Assembly (NCBI GenBank): GCA_947476215.1 | Contig: CANJQI010000001.1 | Coordinates: 29,260-93,259 of the forward strand | Reading direction: 5' to 3' | Length of the DNA: 64,000 nt | From: Betaproteobacteria bacterium | GTDB lineage: Bacteria; Pseudomonadota; Gammaproteobacteria; Burkholderiales; SG8-41 | In this document: in pieces, positions 15,617 to 54,888 of the stretch | How the letters are laid out: every line of letters starts with the position of its first letter | Numbering within the stretch: position 1 is the stretch's first letter | Made by a program: the position numbers and the translations under genes | The notes under the pieces: generated by a model | What the model was told of the DNA's origin: nothing | What the model saw: only the letters and a program-made list of their open reading frames with translations | Database searches by the model: none

Positions 15617-15751
15617 ATGAATATGCTGAGACTGCTGGGGTTATTGGTCTGCGCACTGACGTTGTCGGCCTGCAACACGATGGAAGGTATCGGCAAGGAC
15701 GTCAAGAAGGCCGGCGAGAAGATAGAGATAGCCGCGGACAAGGTCAAGTAA
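15617..15751 (+). CDS. entericidin EcnA/B-family small lipoprotein
   Basis: Not in the ORF track (44 aa). My translation is [44 protein letters not shown], with lipobox L-S-A-C. The stop overlaps the leuD start as TAATG. Confidence 0.75.
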
Positions 15752-16386: not shown

Positions 16387-16433
16387 GGGCAGGATGTGGA
16401 GTCGAGGATTGAGGGTAGCCCGAAGTCACCATG

Positions 16434-16475
16434 CCGATTCTCCTCACTCCTGACTCTTCACTCCTGATTCCTAAT
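16434..16475 (+). repeat. 7-nt periodic G-poor tract (6 units) immediately upstream of leuB
   Basis: ccgattc tcctcac tcctgac tcttcac tcctgat tcctaat, ending 14 nt before the leuB ATG. An inverted purine-rich copy, ggatgtg gagtcga ggattga gggtagc, lies at 16392-16419. Confidence 0.8.
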
Positions 16476-16489
16476 TTCCGAGAAAAAAC

Positions 16490-17566
16490 ATGAAAATCGC
16501 AATATTAGCGGGCGACGGCATAGGCCCGGAGATCATCGCGCAGGCCGTCCAGGTGCTCGAACTGCTGAATGCCGACGGACTCAAGCTCGAACTCGAAGAT
16601 GCGGCGTATGGTGGCGCAGGATACGACGCGCATGGAGATCCCCTGCCGGAGGCAACGCTTAGGCTCGCTCGCGCCGCCGATGCGGTGCTATGCGGCGCGG
16701 TAGGCGGACCACAATACGATGCGTTGCCACGCGAAAAACGCCCGGAACAGGGTTTGTTGCGGATACGTAAAGAACTTGGATTGTTTGCAAACCTGCGTCC
16801 GGCGCTGTTGTTCGAGGAACTCGCCAGCGCATCGTCTCTCAAACCGGAACTGGTGGCCGGACTCGATATTCTGATCTTGCGCGAACTGACCGGGGACATT
16901 TATTTCGGCGAACCGCGCGGGCGGCGGACCAATGCAAGGGGGGAGCGCGAGAGCTTCGATACCATGCTGTACTCGGAGTCCGAAATCCGTCGCATTGCCG
17001 AGGTCGCCTTTAAGGCAGCCGTGAAGCGCCGCAAGAAATTGTGTTCGGTCGACAAGGAGAACGTGCTCGAGACCAGCCGGCTATGGCGCGAGGTGGTCAA
17101 GGATGTCGCGAAAAACTATCCGCAGGTCGAGTTGTCGCACATGTATGTCGACAATGCCGCCATGCAGCTGGTGCGTATGCCGAAACAGTTTGATGTTATT
17201 GTTACCGGCAACATATTTGGTGATATTCTGTCTGACGAAGCATCGATGTTGACCGGCTCTATCGGCATGTTGCCGTCGGCTTCCCTGGATTCGAACAATA
17301 AGGGACTGTACGAACCGGCACACGGTTCCGCGCCAGATATCGCCGGTAAAGACATTGCGAATCCGCTGGCGACGATATTGTCCGTTGCCATGATGCTGCG
17401 CTATACGTTAAACCTTGAGCAAGCAGCAGTGCGCATCGAAACCGCTGTAAAGAAAGTCCTTGCGGAGGGCTATCGTACCGCCGACATCTATCAGCCGCAC
17501 ATGCGCCGGGTTGGTACGCGAGAAATGGGCGCGGCCGTGTTAAACGCACTAAAGCACGGATTATAA
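16490..17566 (+). CDS. leuB: 3-isopropylmalate dehydrogenase
   Basis: [26 protein letters not shown] motif; 358 aa. Confidence 0.95.
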
Positions 17567-24406: not shown

Positions 24407-24457
24407 TAAGAGGGAAACGGTGAGCAGTGAACTGAAAAAACGAGAATTCGAAGCCCG

Positions 24458-24492
24458 TCGCTACCGCTTTCCGCTTACGGTTCACCGTTCAC
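24458..24492 (+). repeat. 7-nt periodic tract (5 units) upstream of trpA
   Basis: tcgctac cgctttc cgcttac ggttcac cgttcac, ending 10 nt before the trpA ATG. The inverted partner GTGAGCAGTGAAC at 24420-24432 can pair with 24480-24492. Confidence 0.8.
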
Positions 24493-24502
24493 GGATGTCC
24501 TG

Positions 24503-25300
24503 ATGTCTAGAATAGCCGCTACTTTCGCTGCGCTCGCGGAACGGAAACGCAAGGGGCTGATACCGTTCATCACCGCCGGCGATCCTGATCCCGAATTGAC
24601 CGTACCGCTCATGCATGCGTTGGCGGGTGCCGGTGCTGATTTGATTGAACTCGGCGTTCCCTTCTCGGACCCCATGGCGGACGGACCGACGATACAACGT
24701 TCCAGTGAGCGCGCCTTGAGTCATGGAACCAGTCTGGTGCACGTGCTCGGATTCGTGTCGGAATTTCGCAAGACCAACGGCAGAACGCCGGTCGTGTTGA
24801 TGGGCTACGCGAACCCAATCGAGGCCATGGGTTATGAACGTTTTGCGGAAGCTGCACGCGTGTCCGGTGTAGATGGCGTGCTGGTGGTCGATTATCCGCC
24901 GGAAGAGTCCGCACAGTTGTCCGAGTTTCTCGAAAAAAGGGAAATCGATGCCATATTCCTGCTCGCGCCCACATCCTCGGCATCGCGAATTGAAAAGGTT
25001 GCACGATACGCGCGTGGCTATGTTTACTACGTCTCGTTGCGTGGCGTAACCGGCGCGGCACACCTCGATCTTGGCGAGATCGCGCACAAGATTCCCCTGA
25101 TACGCACCCACATCCATTTACCTATCGGCGTCGGCTTCGGCATTCGAGACGGACAAACCGCACGGGACGTGGCTAAATTTTCCGACGCCGTGATCATAGG
25201 CAGCCGGCTGGTGCAGGAAATCGAGGAGAGTCCTCGATCGCGAGTGATAGACAATGTCTCGGCCCTGGTCAGGGACATTCGTGGCGCGATGGATAAATAG
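24503..25300 (+). CDS. trpA: tryptophan synthase alpha chain
   Basis: [17 protein letters not shown] motif; 265 aa. Confidence 0.95.
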
Positions 25301-28727: not shown

Positions 28728-30245
28728 ATGTGCGGCATACTAGGGGTGGTGGCAAAAACCGCTGTCAACCAGCTACTGTATGATGGTTTGCTGGTCCTGC
28801 AACATCGCGGGCAGGACGCGGCGGGCATTGTGACGGCTGAGGGCGCCACGTTTCACATGCACAAAGCCAAGGGTTTCGTGCGAGATGTGTTTCGTACCCG
28901 CGACATGCGCACTCTGCTGGGCGCTTGTGGAATCGCGCATACGCGTTATCCCACGGCTGGTTCGGCATCATCGGCGGCCGAGTCTCAGCCTTTTTATGTG
29001 AATTCTCCGTTCGGGTTGGTGCTGGGCCACAATGGCAATCTGACCAATACCGCGCAGCTCAAGAGCGAGTTGTTTCGCCAGGATTTGCGGCACGTCAATA
29101 CCAACTCCGATTCCGAGGTTTTGCTCAATGTGCTTGCGCATGAACTGCAGGAAGGCGCGGCGAATTACAAGCTTGATCCGGCCACGATATTCGCGGCGGT
29201 ATCCGGTGTGCACCGCCGCTGCAGAGGTGCCTACGCGGTAGTTGCGATGGTCGCTGGCTACGGCTTGCTGGCATTCCGCGACCCGTATGGCATTCGGCCG
29301 CTGGTGTTCGGCAAGCAGGAAACCGATCATGGCACGGAATATCTGGTCGCTTCGGAGTCGGTCGCGCTGGATGCTCTAGGCTATGAACTGGTGCGGGACG
29401 TGGCGCCGGGAGAAGCGATCTTTATCGACGAAGACGGAAATTTTTATTCACAGCAATGTGCTGCCAGTCCGTCCCTGAACCCTTGCATCTTTGAATACGT
29501 GTATCTGGCGCGGCCGGACTCGGTTATCGACGGCATATCGGTATATGACACGCGGTTGCGCATGGGAGAGAGCCTGGGCGACAAGATCAAGCGCGAGCAC
29601 GGTAATCTCGACATCGACGTGGTGATTCCGATTCCGGATTCGAGCCGTCCATCCGCGATGCAGCTCGCCAATCGGCTGAATCTGCCTTATCGCGAAGGAT
29701 TCATCAAGAACCGCTACATCGGACGCACTTTTATCATGCCGGGTCAGGCAACACGCCGCAAGTCCGTGCGGCAGAAACTGAATGCCATCGGGATGGAATT
29801 CAAGGGGAAAAACGTGCTCCTGGTGGACGATTCCATAGTGCGCGGCACGACCAGCAGGGAAATCGTCCAGATGGCGCGCGAAGCCGGTGCACGCAAAGTG
29901 TTTTTTGCGTCGGGCGCCCCTCCCGTGAGATTTCCCAATGTCTACGGGATAGACATGCCAACCTGCGAAGAACTGATCGCAACCGGTCGCAGCGATGAGG
30001 AAATAGCACGCGAAATCGGCGCGGATCAGCTTGTTTATCAGGATCTGGACGCGTTGATAGAGGATGTGCATTCGGTGAACCCTGCGGTCACGAGTTTTGA
30101 GGCTTCCTGCTTCAGCGGTATCTATGTCACCGGAGATGTGACGCAGGAATACTTGAATGATGTCGAAGCCCAGCGCCGCGACGGTGGCAGAGGTGCCGGC
30201 CGGTCCGCGACACAGTTGGACCTGAATCTGGAAGTCGTCGACTGA
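28728..30245 (+). CDS. purF: amidophosphoribosyltransferase
   Basis: MCGILGV N-terminal nucleophile Cys and PRTase motif LLVDDSIVRGTTS. Confidence 0.95.
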   Translation: MCGILGVVAKTAVNQLLYDGLLVLQHRGQDAAGIVTAEGATFHMHKAKGFVRDVFRTRDMRTLLGACGIAHTRYPTAGSASSAAESQPFYVNSPFGLVLGHNGNLTNTAQLKSELFRQDLRHVNTNSDSEVLLNVLAHELQEGAANYKLDPATIFAAVSGVHRRCRGAYAVVAMVAGYGLLAFRDPYGIRPLVFGKQETDHGTEYLVASESVALDALGYELVRDVAPGEAIFIDEDGNFYSQQCAASPSLNPCIFEYVYLARPDSVIDGISVYDTRLRMGESLGDKIKREHGNLDIDVVIPIPDSSRPSAMQLANRLNLPYREGFIKNRYIGRTFIMPGQATRRKSVRQKLNAIGMEFKGKNVLLVDDSIVRGTTSREIVQMAREAGARKVFFASGAPPVRFPNVYGIDMPTCEELIATGRSDEEIAREIGADQLVYQDLDALIEDVHSVNPAVTSFEASCFSGIYVTGDVTQEYLNDVEAQRRDGGRGAGRSATQLDLNLEVVD

Positions 30246-32535: not shown

Positions 32536-33261
32536 TCATAATGACAGCACCGTGACTTGGCAGCCCTGCGCGTCGCAACGCAGATAACTCCCCCCGGTAT
32601 ACCAGTCCGCCAGCACCCAGCGTTCGCACATTTGCCCATCGACCATGTGCCGGTGCATGTTGGGTCTGTGCGTATGGCCATGAATCAGGCGTGAGCATTG
32701 ATGGGTGCGGAAAGCCGATTCAACCGCGGAGGCAGTGACGTCCATGATGGTATTGGACTTGCTCGCCTTGTCTTGATTGCTGTCACTGCGCAGGCCTTCG
32801 ACGATTTTCCTGCGCGAGACCAGTGATTGGGCGAGAAAGCGTGTTTGCCACGACGCACCCCTGACTTCGGCGCGAAACGCCTGGTACCTGGTGTCGTCAG
32901 TGCACAGCGTGTCGCCATGCATCAACACTGTTGCTGTGCCATGCACCTCGATCACCGTGGGATCGGGTAACAACGTTGCACCGCTGGCGGCGGCAAAATG
33001 CCCGCCAAGCAGGAAATCGCGGTTTCCGTGCATGACATAAAGTTTGACTTGGTTATTCGCAAGCTGGCGCAGCGAGGCCAGTATAGCCGCGTTAAATGGA
33101 TCGTCGTCATCGTCTCCGGGCCAGTATTCAAATAGGTCGCCGAGTATGTAGAGTGCTTCGGAGCAGGCGGCTGGCCCACGCAGAAATTCGTGGAATATCC
33201 GGTTGATCGCCGGGCGACTGGCGCACAGATGCAGATCGGAAACAAATATGCTGTGCGGCAT
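32536..33261 (-). CDS. lpxH: UDP-2,3-diacylglucosamine diphosphatase
   Basis: Calcineurin-like metallophosphoesterase motifs FVSDLHL, GDLFEYW, GNRDF and HGHTHRP; 241 aa. Confidence 0.9.
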   Translation of the reverse strand: MPHSIFVSDLHLCASRPAINRIFHEFLRGPAACSEALYILGDLFEYWPGDDDDDPFNAAILASLRQLANNQVKLYVMHGNRDFLLGGHFAAASGATLLPDPTVIEVHGTATVLMHGDTLCTDDTRYQAFRAEVRGASWQTRFLAQSLVSRRKIVEGLRSDSNQDKASKSNTIMDVTASAVESAFRTHQCSRLIHGHTHRPNMHRHMVDGQMCERWVLADWYTGGSYLRCDAQGCQVTVLSL

Positions 33262-33296
33262 GGGATGGAGGATAGTGGCGTGGTGGGTAGTGGTAT
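33262..33296 (-). repeat. G-poor 7-nt periodic tract abutting the lpxH start codon
   Basis: The minus strand reads ataccac tacccac cacgcca ctatcct ccatccc, followed directly by ATG. No purine-rich SD. CTATCCTC at 33301-33308 can pair with GAGGATAG at 33269-33276. Confidence 0.7.
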
Positions 33297-33318
33297 TGCG
33301 CTATCCTCAATCCTGCAC

Positions 33319-46631: not shown

Positions 46632-46678
46632 TTTTGATTGCAGTAATAGGGTTGGTTATCAGGCCGGTACAAAGGGAA

Positions 46679-46707
46679 AAGGGGTGAAGAATTTTTCCTC
46701 ACCCCTT
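46679..46707 (-). terminator. hairpin between dnaK and dnaJ (partial terminator/attenuator)
   Basis: AAGGGGTGA-N11-TCACCCCTT, a perfect 9-bp stem. On the coding strand it is followed by TTCCCTTTG. Confidence 0.5.
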
Positions 46708-46730
46708 AAACCCCTGGGCATATCGGACGA

Positions 46731-50952: not shown

Positions 50953-50971
50953 GGGCTACGTCTTGGACTTC

Positions 50972-51006
50972 AGTGAGGAGCGATAAGTGACGAGTGATGA
51001 GCGGGC
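50972..51006 (-). repeat. 7-nt periodic tract (5 units) upstream of hemH
   Basis: The minus strand reads gcccgct catcact cgtcact tatcgct cctcact, ending 19 nt before the hemH ATG. The unit CnTCACT is the same as in the leuB tract. Confidence 0.8.
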
Positions 51007-51064
51007 GCCAGCAAGCCATGCGGCTTCGGCTTGGTTGCCCAGCCTCGAGACCCGCTCGCCACCC

Positions 51065-52099: not shown

Positions 52100-52132
52100 G
52101 AATTTATTCTACACAAATAGATGGTCAACCGG

Positions 52133-52167
52133 GTAAACAGTGAACGTTGAGCCGTAAACGGCGAGCG
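52133..52167 (-). repeat. 7-nt periodic tract (5 units) upstream of hrcA
   Basis: The minus strand reads cgctcgc cgtttac ggctcaa cgttcac tgtttac, ending 33 nt before the hrcA ATG. Confidence 0.75.
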
Positions 52168-52217
52168 CGATGTCACGATAGACGCGTGTTTCCCGGCACT
52201 TTCCGCCTGCGACTTGC

Positions 52218-52238
52218 GGTTCACCGTTCGCCGTAATC
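52218..52238 (+). repeat. 7-nt periodic tract (3 units) upstream of nadK
   Basis: ggttcac cgttcgc cgtaatc, ending 17 nt before ATG 52256. Opposite orientation to the hrcA tract in the same divergent intergenic region. Confidence 0.7.
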
Positions 52239-52255
52239 TATGGTTTAATGCGGTC

Positions 52256-53128
52256 ATGAATACATCATTCAAGACCGTGGGCCTGATCGGTAAATACAAG
52301 AGCCCGGAGATCGCGGGTCCGTTGCTCAAGCTGGGTGAGTTTCTCGCCCGACGCGGCGTCACCGTATTGGTCGACACACTGACCGCCGCGAACATAGGCG
52401 AGAGCGGATACCCGGTTTTGGCGCTAGAGGAAATCGGGCAACAGGCGGATCTGGCCATCGTCATTGGGGGCGATGGAACCATGCTCAACATCGCGCGCAC
52501 GCTTGCGCCATTTGATGTTGCCCTGGTGGGTGTCAACCAGGGCAGGCTGGGATTCCTGACCGATATCTCGATAGATACCATGTTCGAAACCATAGGCAGC
52601 ATACTCGATGGTTCCTACGTGACCGAGGAACGCATGCTGCTCAAAGCCGAAGTCATCAGCAGCGAGCGCACGGTTTTTGACGTGCTGGCTTTCAATGATG
52701 CCGTTGTTACCAAGGGTATCAAGGGCAGCATGATAGAGTTCGAAGTCAAGATAGATGGGAAACACCTGTATACACTGCGCTCCGACGGTTTCATCGTCGC
52801 CACACCCACCGGGTCCACGGCGTACGCCTTGTCCGCCGGCGGCCCTGTCGTACACCCGTCGTTGTCCGTGATGTCGCTGGTGCCGATATGCCCGCACACA
52901 TTTTCAAGCCGGCCTGTGGTGATCAGCAGCGACAGCGTGGTGGAAATCGCAATCAGCAGCGCCGCCAACGCGCGCGCTCACTTTGACAGCCACTCACGCT
53001 TCGATCTGCGTGATAGGGATCGCGTCATCGTAAGACGCTATGAACATACAATACGCCTGCTACATCCGGTGGGCCACGATTACTACAATATGCTGCGCGG
53101 CAAGCTGCACTGGACAGAGTCGTACTGA
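52256..53128 (+). CDS. nadK: NAD(+) kinase
   Basis: GGDGTML motif and MNTSFKTVGLIGKYKSP N-terminus. The track ORF opens at 52214, but the internal Met at 52256 fits the family. Confidence 0.9.
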   Translation: MNTSFKTVGLIGKYKSPEIAGPLLKLGEFLARRGVTVLVDTLTAANIGESGYPVLALEEIGQQADLAIVIGGDGTMLNIARTLAPFDVALVGVNQGRLGFLTDISIDTMFETIGSILDGSYVTEERMLLKAEVISSERTVFDVLAFNDAVVTKGIKGSMIEFEVKIDGKHLYTLRSDGFIVATPTGSTAYALSAGGPVVHPSLSVMSLVPICPHTFSSRPVVISSDSVVEIAISSAANARAHFDSHSRFDLRDRDRVIVRRYEHTIRLLHPVGHDYYNMLRGKLHWTESY

Positions 53129-53197
53129 GGGCGGCATGACGGCGGGGGGCGAAAATACGAAGAGGTTGGCTGGCGTCAGCGTGGGCGCGGTCTTTTT

Positions 53198-53224
53198 TCA
53201 TCCCTCATCCCTCATCCCTCAACC
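53198..53224 (+). repeat. perfect tandem heptamer (TCATCCC) x3 plus a partial unit, upstream of recN
   Basis: tcatccc tcatccc tcatccc tcaacc, ending 11 nt before the recN GTG start (53236). Confidence 0.9.
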
Positions 53225-53235
53225 TTAGTTCTAAA

Positions 53236-54888
53236 GTGCTCCGTTCCCTTTGCATTCGTGATTTCGTGATCGTCGACCGTGTCGATCTCGAATTTGAAGA
53301 AGGTTTCACGGTTCTGACCGGAGAAACCGGCGCCGGCAAGTCCATCCTGATAGACGCGCTGGCGATGGTGCTCGGACAGCGCGCCGATGCCGACGTAGTT
53401 CGGCAGGGGGCGGAGAAAGCCGAAATCAGCGCCGAGTTCGACGCGGGCGCCTTGCACGCATGGCTAAACGACAACGATCTGACCGGTGATGACGATAGTT
53501 GCCTAGTGCGGCGTGTGATCGATGGCGGTGGACGTTCGCGTGCGTTTATCAACGGCCGCGGCGTAACGCTCGCGCAGTTGCGGGAGGCGGGAGAGTTCCT
53601 GATCGATATTCATGGGCAGCACGAACATCAGTCGCTGTTGCGTCCGGCCGCGCAGCGCAGCCTGCTTGACGCCTATGGCGGCCTGGGCGACATGGCGCAG
53701 GCCGTCGCGGCGGCGTGGCGCCGTAGCCAGGAAATTCGTCAAAACCTGACTCTGCTTGAAACCAATGCAGCGGCATTTGCCGCCGAGCGCGAACAACTTG
53801 AATGGCAGGTGCGCGAACTCGACGCGTTGCGGTTCAGTCCGGCGGAGTGGCAGGAACTTCAGGCAGAGCATGCACGTCTCGCGCATGCGCAGAGCCTGAT
53901 TGAGGGAACTCAGATTGCGGCCGAGTTGTTGTCCGAGGGTGATCATGCGGGTCTCGCGCAGCTTGCGGCGGTGTCGTCCGGACTTGACCGCCTGCTTGAA
54001 TATGATGCGCGTCTCAAGGAAATCGTCGACGTCATTGCCTCGGCCCAGGCGCAGGCCCAGGAGGCTGCTTATATGCTGCGCGACTATCAGCAGCGTCTCG
54101 ATATCGATCCGCGACGCATCCGGGAAGTGGAGCAGCGCCTGGATGCGGTACACGCAAGCGCGCGTAAGTATCGCGCTACGCCTGAAACTATCCCGGATGC
54201 GCTCGATCGCGCCCGAGCGCGTCTGGACCAGTTGGGCGGTAACGACGACTTGGAGGCGCTGCGTGTGCGGGTTGCCGAGGCTCATGCCGCCTTTTTGGCC
54301 GAGGCCGGCAAGTTGAGCGCGGGTCGCGGCAAGGCCGCAAAGGCGCTGTCAGCGAAAGTTACCGCGGCGATGCAGACACTGGCCCTGGCCGGCGGCAGTT
54401 TCGAGGTTGCATTGACCCGATTGCCCGAAGGCAAAAGCAGTGGCCTTGAGCAAGTCGAATTTCTCGTGTCGGCGCACAAGGGCATTGCGGCGAGGCCGTT
54501 GGCGAAGGTTGCATCGGGAGGCGAATTGTCGCGCATCAGTCTCGCGATACAGGCCGCGACGAGCGAGATCGCGCTGGTGCCGACGCTGATATTCGATGAA
54601 GTCGACGCCGGCATAGGCGGGCGCGTGGCGGAGATCGTCGGCCAGATGCTGAAGAAGCTTGGCAGTAAGCATCAGGTCATGTGCATTACTCATTTGCCGC
54701 AGGTCGCCGCTTCCGCCGACAGTCAGTGGCAGGTTACGAAAAGCACGAGTGGCGGCAAAGTCGTGAGCCGTGTTGTGGCGCTCGACGATAAACAGCGCGT
54801 TGAGGAAATTGCACGCATGCTCGGTGGAGTTAAAATCACCGAGACGACGCGCAGACACGCAGCAGAGATGCTGGGCGTCAAGTTCTGA
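53236..54888 (+). CDS. recN: DNA repair protein RecN
   Basis: MLRSLCIRDFVIVD..., Walker A GETGAGKS, coiled-coil middle and C-terminal SGGELSRISLA signature; 550 aa. Confidence 0.95.
   Translation: MLRSLCIRDFVIVDRVDLEFEEGFTVLTGETGAGKSILIDALAMVLGQRADADVVRQGAEKAEISAEFDAGALHAWLNDNDLTGDDDSCLVRRVIDGGGRSRAFINGRGVTLAQLREAGEFLIDIHGQHEHQSLLRPAAQRSLLDAYGGLGDMAQAVAAAWRRSQEIRQNLTLLETNAAAFAAEREQLEWQVRELDALRFSPAEWQELQAEHARLAHAQSLIEGTQIAAELLSEGDHAGLAQLAAVSSGLDRLLEYDARLKEIVDVIASAQAQAQEAAYMLRDYQQRLDIDPRRIREVEQRLDAVHASARKYRATPETIPDALDRARARLDQLGGNDDLEALRVRVAEAHAAFLAEAGKLSAGRGKAAKALSAKVTAAMQTLALAGGSFEVALTRLPEGKSSGLEQVEFLVSAHKGIAARPLAKVASGGELSRISLAIQAATSEIALVPTLIFDEVDAGIGGRVAEIVGQMLKKLGSKHQVMCITHLPQVAASADSQWQVTKSTSGGKVVSRVVALDDKQRVEEIARMLGGVKITETTRRHAAEMLGVKF

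Follow-up and report, generated by a model that had tools for sequence, protein, structure and literature searches.

The stretch of DNA analyzed here (the window) comprises 64,000 nt, positions 29,260 to 93,259 of contig CANJQI010000001.1 (assembly GCA_947476215.1) from a Betaproteobacteria bacterium, and carries G-poor tracts of tandem heptamers in front of leuB, trpA, lpxH, hemH, hrcA, nadK, and recN. According to our analysis, these tracts are very probably one arm, usually the 3' one, of an intercistronic palindrome of 3–6 tandem heptamers. The layout of the element is a G/purine-rich array, a 15–60 nt spacer, and a complementary C/pyrimidine-rich array. The element is slippage-prone, intergenic, anchored to the upstream stop codon, and G-first, i.e., it reads G-rich and then C-rich on both strands.

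The G+C content of the window was 58%. The betaproteobacterial block leuC-leuD-leuB-asd-fimV-truA-trpF-trpB-trpA-accD-folC was present, and the window sequence was also found on groundwater-type metagenome contigs. The nearest species representatives were Burkholderiales/Nitrosomonadales-like metagenome-assembled genomes (MAGs) with LeuB identities of 86–87%. Names and start codons were checked for leuD, leuB, trpB, trpA, ppiB, lpxH, hrcA, hemH, nadK, and recN, and the genes adjoining the tracts were confirmed with NCBIfam. The identities given in the first-pass annotation were thereby borne out, with the start of nadK set at 52256 instead of the TTG at 52214 and that of recN at the GTG at 53236. 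The data covered the window and ~1.5 Mb of syntenic loci; L-numbers (L001, L105, L109, etc.) denote contigs or loci of relatives or strain variants. The scan of the whole window against Rfam 15 gave no match at the gathering score, and the tRNA scan of the window found nothing. The elements and the features next to them are as follows.

16387–16415, plus strand: 5' arm of the leuD-leuB element, purine-rich AGGATGT GGAGTCG AGGATTG AGGGTAG, beginning at the first base past the leuD stop codon.
16441–16471, plus strand: 3' arm of the leuD-leuB element, CTCCTCA CTCCTGA CTCTTCA CTCCTGA, the G-poor tract originally reported; leuB starts at 16490.
24411–24437, plus strand: 5' arm of the trpB-trpA element, GGTGAGC AGTGAAC TGA, 4 nt past the trpB stop codon.
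24468–24501, plus strand: 3' arm of the trpB-trpA element, CGCTTAC GGTTCAC CGTTCAC GG, 1 nt short of the trpA ATG at 24503.
33301–33313, minus strand: 5' arm of the ppiB-lpxH element on the sense strand of lpxH, GGATTGAGGATAG.
33263–33275, minus strand: 3' arm of the ppiB-lpxH element, CTATCCTCCATCC, 1 nt short of the lpxH ATG at 33261.
50970–51006, minus strand: hemH array, CATCACT CGTCACT TATCGCT CCTCACT as read on the minus strand, with only the 5'-most units paired.
51051–51062, minus strand: short G-rich partner of the hemH array, GTGGCGAGCGGG, immediately past the hrcA stop codon.
52127–52157, no strand assigned: left arm of the hrcA<>nadK palindrome in the divergent region, as folded, GTAAACA GTGAACG TTGAGCC GTAAACG.
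52214–52245, no strand assigned: right arm of the hrcA<>nadK palindrome, CGGTTCA CCGTTCG CCGTAAT, 10 nt short of the nadK ATG at 52256.
53173–53197, plus strand: terminator-like GC hairpin followed by T6, after nadK and directly 5' of the recN array.
53198–53224, plus strand: lone direct array of recN, (TCATCCC)x3.4, 100% identity in Tandem Repeats Finder (TRF), 11 nt before the recN GTG.

Periodicity was scored per 21 nt by counting the bases identical to the one 7 positions further on. A score of at least 15/21 was reached 36 times at period 7 in the 64 kb and 0 times at periods 5, 8, 10, 11, and 13. About half of the period-7 clusters (5–6 of 10) were intergenic, with intergenic regions (IGRs) making up 6.5% of the window. 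TRF reported period 7/14 at 16440–16472 and 3.4 perfect TCATCCC copies at 53198–53221. The arrays thus share with heptanucleotide long simple sequence repeats (LSSRs) head-to-tail 7-nt units beyond chance and a preference for non-coding DNA. Site by site, the scores were 16/21 at leuB, 16/21 at trpA, 19/21 at recN, 14/21 at hemH, 14/21 at hrcA/nadK, and 12/21 at lpxH. The tandem heptamers described earlier are therefore confirmed by TRF and the period scores, but with a weak signal at lpxH and a middling one at hemH and hrcA/nadK; the supposed weaker relatives before the permease gene, cysS, and leuC scored 7–13/21, no different from other periods. It is scarcely credible that the tracts as a whole are a compositional or chance artefact of pyrimidine-rich leaders. 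The permease, cysS, leuC, and lpxH tracts would fit such an origin, as their period-7 scores do not exceed those at other periods, but five of the 27 IGRs scored at least 14/21 at period 7 against 0.07 on average over 300 shuffles, none of which gave more than 1; the excess was absent at every other non-triplet period tested, and the pattern recurs in relatives. For the main sites, shuffles, control periods, and replication in relatives rule this origin out.

At leuB, trpA, lpxH, and hrcA/nadK, the folds of the IGRs make the pyrimidine tract the 3' arm of an imperfect inverted repeat, whose 5' arm consists of complementary purine/G-rich heptamers. Complementarity of the arms was compared with shuffles preserving the composition of each arm; the z values were −3.7 for leuB (Watson–Crick pairs only), −3.7 to −4.7 for lpxH, −2.3 for trpA, and −3.2 for hrcA<>nadK (G:U allowed). 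Four of the six window sites thus form hairpins beyond arm-wise shuffles, while the whole-arm complementarity of hemH was not significant in the same test and the recN array had no convincing inverted partner (arm test not significant). The inverted purine-rich partners suspected upstream of several tracts exist by folding, repeat search, and arm test alike; the long-range hairpins proposed from them proved to be the main feature of the repeat class, and the suggestion of a lineage-specific intergenic repeat class is supported.

In the leuD-leuB IGR, the RNA fold paired 16387–16415 with 16441–16471. At trpB-trpA (fold z = −2.9) the repeat search returned two pairings 7 nt out of register, 24411–24437/24475–24501 and 24416–24437/24468–24489, as expected from repeat-built arms; the trpA start context was CTGATG (24498–24505). 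The ppiB-lpxH inverted repeat was 13 nt long and 92% complementary (fold z = −4.4); its orthologue in L109 opens with an identical CAGGATTGAGGATAGCG and carries (CCTCGAT/CCTCAAT)x5 abutting the ATG. The basal inverted repeat of hemH comprised 12 nt, 50994–51005/51051–51062, with 83% complementarity. A promoter-like TTGACC-16-TAAATT (52128–52101, minus strand) lies between the left arm of the hrcA<>nadK palindrome and the hrcA ATG. No T-run follows the 3' arms at leuB, trpA, and lpxH, so they do not have the form of intrinsic terminators; the sole terminator-like site noted was the separate hairpin at 53173–53197.

Two observations concern the starts of the neighboring genes. The promoter-like site of hrcA ends 1 nt before the annotated ATG, and the NCBIfam alignment begins at residue 10; hrcA is either nearly leaderless, or its true start lies further downstream. 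recN has a GTG start, no Shine–Dalgarno (SD) sequence, and only ~40 nt of room for a promoter behind the terminator-like hairpin of nadK.

The survey of relatives covered 80 syntenic loci (1.39 Mb); further close relatives were gathered via homologous proteins and the contigs encoding them, and orthologous IGRs were mapped by tblastn. Period-7 clusters numbered 51 in the 80 loci, against 14–24 for other non-triplet periods, and were concentrated in the nearest relatives, including Gallionella, Sulfuricella, and Methylotenera MAGs. Among the 80 loci, those of Pseudomonas had no period-7 clusters, and those of Janthinobacterium and Burkholderia had almost none and none forming a hairpin. Scores of at least 16/21 were found at period 7 in 13 IGR cells (leuD-leuB, leuB-asd, trpB-trpA, trpA-accD) and at four control periods together in one; all elements of the 13 cells were stem-loops in which a spacer separates a first, purine-rich array from a second, pyrimidine-rich one. 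The comparison of orthologous IGRs called for by the first-pass annotation thus revealed an architecture kept in related betaproteobacteria with differing heptamers. The unit varied by genome (GTGAAAC, GTGAGGC, GTGAAGG, GGGGCTA, GTAGCYN, TCAGCNN, and others), and one family was often used by different IGRs of one genome; GTGAAGG was shared by L109, L110, and L111, and GGGGCTA by L007, L029, and L048. A 15-mer, AGGATTGAGGRTAGC, was common to the leuB and lpxH elements and had two mismatch-free copies in 64 kb; with 3 mismatches allowed, 13 of 100 shuffles equaled its count. Words resembling GTGAACGGTGAAC were at chance level outside IGRs. Within the 64 kb, these two observations speak against a master sequence of the type of a miniature inverted-repeat transposable element (MITE) or of repetitive extragenic palindromic (REP) sequences.

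Several loci of the relatives deserve separate mention. Arms or arrays with other unit lengths were seen, with the 9-nt GCAGAGGAC and the 10-nt CGCCGATRAA (leuD-leuB IGR of L007; L111, 17066–17303; L110, 17383–17651); arms made of repeats thus occur at periods other than 7, although 7 is the dominant one. The Methylotenera MAG locus L048 carries a long perfect single array, (CTAACTT)x11, at 761–840. In L009 (3822–3919 and 3364–3396), (CCTGAAT/CCCCAAT)x14 has a G-rich complementary array ~450 nt upstream, not adjacent. The loop of the leuB-asd heptamer hairpin of L007 (11066–11179) holds a terminator-like GC hairpin with T5.

Of 21 hairpins, 20 had the G-first symmetry; of 22 arm calls made blind to genes, 20 had it, both exceptions belonging to one element of L008. 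Counted by element, the figure was about 15 of 16. The statement of the first-pass annotation that the pyrimidine-rich form lies on the coding strand of the downstream gene is true but uninformative, since both strands of a G-first palindrome read G-rich then C-rich and the placement is automatic for any such inverted repeat; orientation relative to genes was therefore dropped as evidence. Position was informative. In 26 co-directional cases, the median distance was 0 nt from stop codon to stem (extremes −3 and +6) and 14 nt from stem to start codon (extremes 0 and 44; Wilcoxon p = 4e-5), and thus the element is anchored to the end of the upstream gene, not to the start of the downstream one. 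In many cases, the array opens with the upstream stop codon, in phase, as part of its first unit (e.g., TGAAACG TGAAGGG TGAAACG); stop codon and array were in phase in L001, L008, L020, L048, and L109. Most elements lie inside operons, away from promoters. The 5' purine arms of 26 elements had stop triplets in 1.81 frames, against 1.18 in composition-matched shuffles; L008, with stops in the 3' arm, is a counter-example. Three-frame stops were rejected as the cause of period 7, the excess being only modest and L008 contradicting it.

Contigs encoding proteins identical to those of the window were taken as strain variants. In one of them (L103, 1662–1786, corresponding to window 53129–53235), the recN array lacked exactly 14 nt, i.e., two units (TCATCCC TCAACCT), with flanks and GTG unchanged, which is the expected footprint of slippage and, as in heptanucleotide LSSRs, a change of copy number in whole units. 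At leuB, trpA, and hrcA<>nadK, variants (6–10 contigs each) differed by single-nucleotide polymorphisms (SNPs) only; leuD-leuB had three SNPs at constant copy number. Between orthologues, the number of units differs. Slipped-strand mispairing, in steps of 7 nt, both builds and reshapes the arrays.

The trpB-trpA element of the window is homologous to those of L105, L109, L110, L111, and L001: orthologous elements have the 3' flank TCACGG N5-6 CTGATG in common, with different units, and their arms co-vary. For nine such elements, complementarity of the period-7 profiles was 4.49 for matched and 3.67 for mismatched arms (permutation p = 5e-5). Divergence was measured with arms and loops as explicit strings and 4-fold degenerate sites from the flanking genes. 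In the leuD-leuB elements of L109 and L110, it was 1.6% in arrays, 34% at 4-fold sites, and 31% in the loop (p for arrays vs. 4-fold sites, 5e-9); in the trpB-trpA elements, it was 6.6%, 34%, and 62%, respectively, for L111 and L109 (p = 5e-6), and 21%, 46%, and 42% for the window and L105 (p = 0.002). Arrays thus evolve 2–20 times slower than 4-fold sites, and loops roughly as fast as neutral sites or faster. The arrays are under constraint, and the two arms are kept complementary.

The trpB-trpA junction also retains traces of the state before the element. In genomes without it, the trpB stop and trpA start codons overlap as TGATG (L016) or ATGA (L010, L019); in all genomes with it, the trpA start retains CTGATG, the last residue of TrpB is unchanged, and the first heptamer supplies the new stop. 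The element therefore appears to sit between the last sense codon of trpB and the ancestral coupled junction. From this comparison of junctions, trpA appears to have been an SD-less coupled cistron already before the element came in, and its lack of an SD sequence would follow from the lodging of the element at the ancestral overlap.

The first-pass annotation regarded the tracts as replacing the SD sequence. All seven tract-linked genes of the window indeed had a weak SD sequence or none (mean −0.9 vs. −3.6 kcal/mol for the others, Mann–Whitney U test p = 0.018), but so did about 60% of the other window genes, based on rough start calls. Among relatives, the same genes had weak SD sequences in 56% of cases behind a hairpin and in 41–43% without one (p = 0.15–0.18). 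A normal SD sequence was usually found in the gap where the stem ended at least 16 nt before the start; it was absent where the stem ended at most 13 nt before it (trpA and lpxH here; trpA or lpxH in L001, L002, L105, and L109). Direct repeats cover the expected ribosome-binding site of an SD-less gene at trpA, lpxH, and recN; most sets are inverted pairs. Pairing of the purine arms with the 3' tail of 16S rRNA was weaker than in shuffles (mean z = +0.70 over 31 arms), partly owing to the low k-mer diversity of repeats; the resemblance claimed between the units and this tail is no better than that of composition-matched shuffles, and SD/anti-SD mimicry was rejected. Replacement of the SD sequence by the tracts is not supported, given the non-significant deficit in relatives and the weak SD sequences of other genes; neither is the S1-type or translational-enhancer leader proposed with it, because the elements are stop-anchored, an SD sequence is often present in the gap, and the hrcA tract lies upstream of a promoter-like site. 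In L105 (195–1061, P0002), the public TrpA call is 288 instead of 265 aa long, extended by 23 aa through the pyrimidine array, probably because no SD sequence marks the true start.

Our preferred reading takes the structure one step further. Elements within operons (leuCD-leuB-asd, trpB-trpA, ppiB-lpxH) would, by virtue of that position, be transcribed and fold as a mismatch-punctuated stem-loop. Such a stem-loop may act in a REP-like manner: closing off the upstream cistron with a structured block at its 3' end, it would influence termination and the stability of mRNA segments. A stem of about −30 kcal/mol precedes SD-less genes such as trpA; where the stem reaches an SD-less start (trpA, lpxH), initiation would depend on the terminating ribosome unzipping the base of the stem, a coupling of the RNA-unfolding or reinitiation type. 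Both models of translational coupling are established (review PMC12548453). The 7-nt period would reflect the growth of the arms rather than a decoding signal. The G-first order would place TGA/TAG/TAA next to the gene end and keep SD-like and GTG/ATG words off the gene start, and may be the only one tolerated in tight intergenic gaps. The functional part of this reading is tentative and, in our judgment, somewhat doubtful; the account as a whole has about an even chance of being the best explanation.

Several points weigh against it. L113 has compact IGRs throughout and the leuD-leuB gap of L001 is 12 nt, i.e., there is no element, and elements are dispensable because close relatives do without them. 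Mismatches show no sense-strand bias, with 22 of G:U type and 19 of A:C type (p = 0.76; 8:5 in a smaller set of elements), and sense and antisense folds are about equally stable; therefore, selection could act on DNA rather than RNA, and the search for a sense-strand RNA signature, which cannot separate the two, was abandoned. The recN array is without a partner arm, the partner of hemH comprises only 12 nt, and the hrcA-side arm seems to lie upstream of a promoter. As summarized in PMC12548453, structure placed just past the upstream stop codon lowered coupling in the E. coli library of Chemla et al. The survey base was limited to 64 kb plus ~1.5 Mb of syntenic loci, and we infer the functional steps from sequence, which limits their weight.

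Among the alternatives, the proposal that the elements are selfish or neutral palindromic repeats (REP- or REP doublet (REPIN)-like, MITE-like, or self-expanding simple repeats), inserting or expanding wherever intergenic room allows, persisting as harmless and with any host function incidental, is unlikely, although it agrees with their patchy presence among close relatives, with genome-specific heptamer families spread across unrelated IGRs, AGGATTGAGGRTAGC at both leuB and lpxH among them, with the insertion-like placement of the trpB-trpA element between the last sense codon and the ancestral TGATG, and with the lack of strand bias in wobble pairs; the G-first order could then be the outcome of a survivorship filter for immediate stops in all frames (1.81 vs. 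1.18). Neutral decay, however, does not predict arrays whose rate of evolution is 2–20 times below that of 4-fold sites and also below that of their own loops; there is co-variation of the arms at orthologous sites, no long conserved multi-copy unit was found in the 64 kb, where the 15-mer occurs only twice without mismatch, and no target-site duplication above 2–3 nt was seen at the elements. Constraint could also arise at the DNA level, from protein binding sites, a cruciform, or a G-quadruplex (G4)/i-motif affecting transcription, supercoiling, or replication. The strand-symmetric constraint would suit this proposal, as would the one element that occupies a divergent promoter region and is followed directly by a −35-like hexamer; GGGNATC arrays fold as G4 and i-motif in vitro (PMC4692102), and units of the GGGGCTA/GGGATGA type occur in L007, L029, and L048 and at recN. 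We nevertheless consider it very unlikely: heptamers differ between IGRs and between orthologous sites, leaving no conserved site for any one protein, G4 formation is impossible for most of the window units (GTGAACG, GGAGTGA, GAGGATT), a 7-bp period puts successive sites on different helix faces, and most elements are in operons, away from promoters.

Two further proposals give the heptamer a role in translation. An SD-independent leader, whose pyrimidine heptamers recruit ribosomes via S1 or bind a cold-shock domain/oligonucleotide-binding (OB)-fold protein unit by unit, would account for the weak or missing SD sequences of 7/7 tract-linked genes (p = 0.018) and for arrays within 0–1 nt of the ATG at trpA and lpxH, both here and in L109. 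There is precedent for it: each heptamer is bound by one CspB molecule, and S1 works on leaders lacking an SD sequence (as summarized in PMC4679880), and a leader role has been published for the TAACTGA repeat, where SD sequences occur in only ~10% of repeat IGRs (PMC4679880). It is nonetheless improbable in view of the non-significant SD effect in relatives (56% vs. 41–43%), the ~60% of other window genes with equally weak SD sequences, the normal SD sequence after many elements, the anchoring to the stop rather than the start, the two-unit deletion tolerated at recN, and the hrcA tract upstream of a promoter-like site. Moreover, the tract is base-paired in the folds, not single-stranded, and is C-rich, while S1 prefers A/U-rich RNA. 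Of equally low probability is a dedicated coupling device that would zip the stop to the start. In this case, the stem base would join the nucleotides after the stop codon to those before an SD-less start, and the terminating ribosome would unzip it and hand over or reinitiate across a ~90 nt linear gap. The 7-nt unit would be the footprint of one cold-shock or S1-type OB-fold domain; a cold-shock protein (Csp) or S1 would hold the pyrimidine arm open unit by unit, making coupling dependent on temperature or chaperone dose, and pairing in several registers would render the stem tolerant of slippage.

REP sequences, bacterial interspersed mosaic elements, and REPINs are species-specific imperfect palindromes found after stop codons in operons of enterobacteria and pseudomonads, and their RNA stem-loops stabilize upstream mRNA. 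REPs are copies of one conserved 20–40-nt sequence and are linked to the RAYT transposase. Liang, Rudd, and Deutscher reportedly found in 2015 that REPs within ~15 nt of a stop codon reduce expression of the upstream gene. The elements described here resemble REPs as imperfect palindromes after stop codons inside operons, but their arms are locus-specific tandem heptamers, and the 64 kb showed no master sequence in multiple copies.

The assertion of the first-pass annotation that no such element had been described is wrong, as LSSRs (Mrazek 2007), the GGGAATC arrays of Xanthomonas (PMC4692102), and the TAACTGA repeats of Beggiatoaceae (PMC4679880) have been published. According to Rehm et al. 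(2015, PMC4692102), Xanthomonas has ~185 GGGAATC arrays of ~4 units, 70–75 of them in convergent pairs; ~90% are intergenic, mostly between co-oriented genes and nearer the upstream ORF, and they are not conserved at the same genes between species. Our elements are likewise intergenic tandem heptamers of ~4 units nearer the upstream ORF (median 0 vs. 14 nt) and also combine two arrays on opposite strands, convergent meaning G-first, that can form a stem-loop, here at 4/6 window sites. In contrast, they do not follow the GGGNATC consensus with at least four G3 tracts: their units are GGAGTGA/GAGGATT, GTGAACG, GTGANGA, and GGGATGA, and among the window arrays only the antisense strand of recN has three GGG tracts. 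Xanthomonas has one dominant G4-prone unit, whereas several families per genome (GTGARNN, GAGGRWT, GGGATGA), most of them non-G4, occur here; the host is betaproteobacterial, the stop codon directly adjoins the stem or forms part of it, and the arms show both co-variation and constraint.

In the summaries given in PMC4679880 and PMC4692102, Mrazek, Guo, and Shah (2007) describe 7 as the most abundant unit length of long simple repeats in many prokaryotes, including betaproteobacteria (Burkholderia), with non-coding location and proposed slippage. The window elements share the 7-nt units, the non-coding position, and slippage (the two-unit indel); as those summaries define LSSRs, they are direct arrays, so that paired inversion, stop anchoring, and slow evolution lie outside the description. 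The TAACTGA repeats (MacGregor 2015, PMC4679880) occur in 2–6 copies in IGRs a few nt from starts, with the SD sequence mostly missing, and S1, Csp, and CsrA have been proposed to act on them; 169 direct sets were reported against one indirect (PMC4679880). Heptamers in IGRs near starts and downstream window genes with weak or no SD sequences are common to both systems. However, TAACTGA is a single fixed heptamer, while the units here are variable and mostly in inverted pairs, and the SD deficit is not significant in relatives; the TAACTGA unit was in none of the arrays of the window or relatives. The elements lack the sequence hallmarks of the Xanthomonas and TAACTGA families and share the Xanthomonas architecture. 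The short tandemly repeated repetitive sequences of heterocystous cyanobacteria (Mazel et al. 1990, cited in PMC4692102) are tandem heptanucleotides dispersed in non-coding DNA; as far as that account goes, they comprise a few fixed units per genome in long direct arrays, and paired inverted arrays are rare in Nostoc. Intrastrand triplex motifs (PMC4666352) were rejected because the elements are inverted, not mirror, repeats; integron attC sites, DNA uptake sequences (DUS/USS), TRAP-like sites, and leader attenuators were dropped on the grounds of housekeeping synteny, variable units, and intercistronic position.

The feature is real and not new in kind: repeats of this poorly understood class have been reported before, from other bacteria. 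What this analysis adds is a further host lineage, variable units outside the G4 type, anchoring to the stop codon, and evidence that the arms co-vary and are constrained. In the literature collection searched, there was no description of such hairpins for Nitrosomonadales-like betaproteobacteria. In many bacterial genomes, no long simple repeats are more common than heptanucleotide ones, and the present lineage makes them tractable, with stem-forming pairs at conserved positions in essential operons (leu, trp, lpxH) that co-vary, evolve slowly, and start at stop codons. Testable questions are whether the stem is an mRNA insulator or coupler, how SD-less translation of the trpA type proceeds behind it, and why the order is only G-first. 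In practice, gene callers mis-start genes at the arrays, as with P0002 TrpA, 23 aa too long.

Two other features of the window were recorded. A strong hairpin lies at 46632–46730 (minus strand) between two co-directional genes, AAGGGGTGAGGAA...TTCTTCACCCCTT followed by TTTCCCTTT; it contains GTGAGGA/TCACC words as in the heptamer arrays, but is non-periodic. In the leuC/leuD gap, an entericidin-like ORF of 44 aa (PF08085) is encoded at 15617–15751 on the plus strand and is also called on public contigs.

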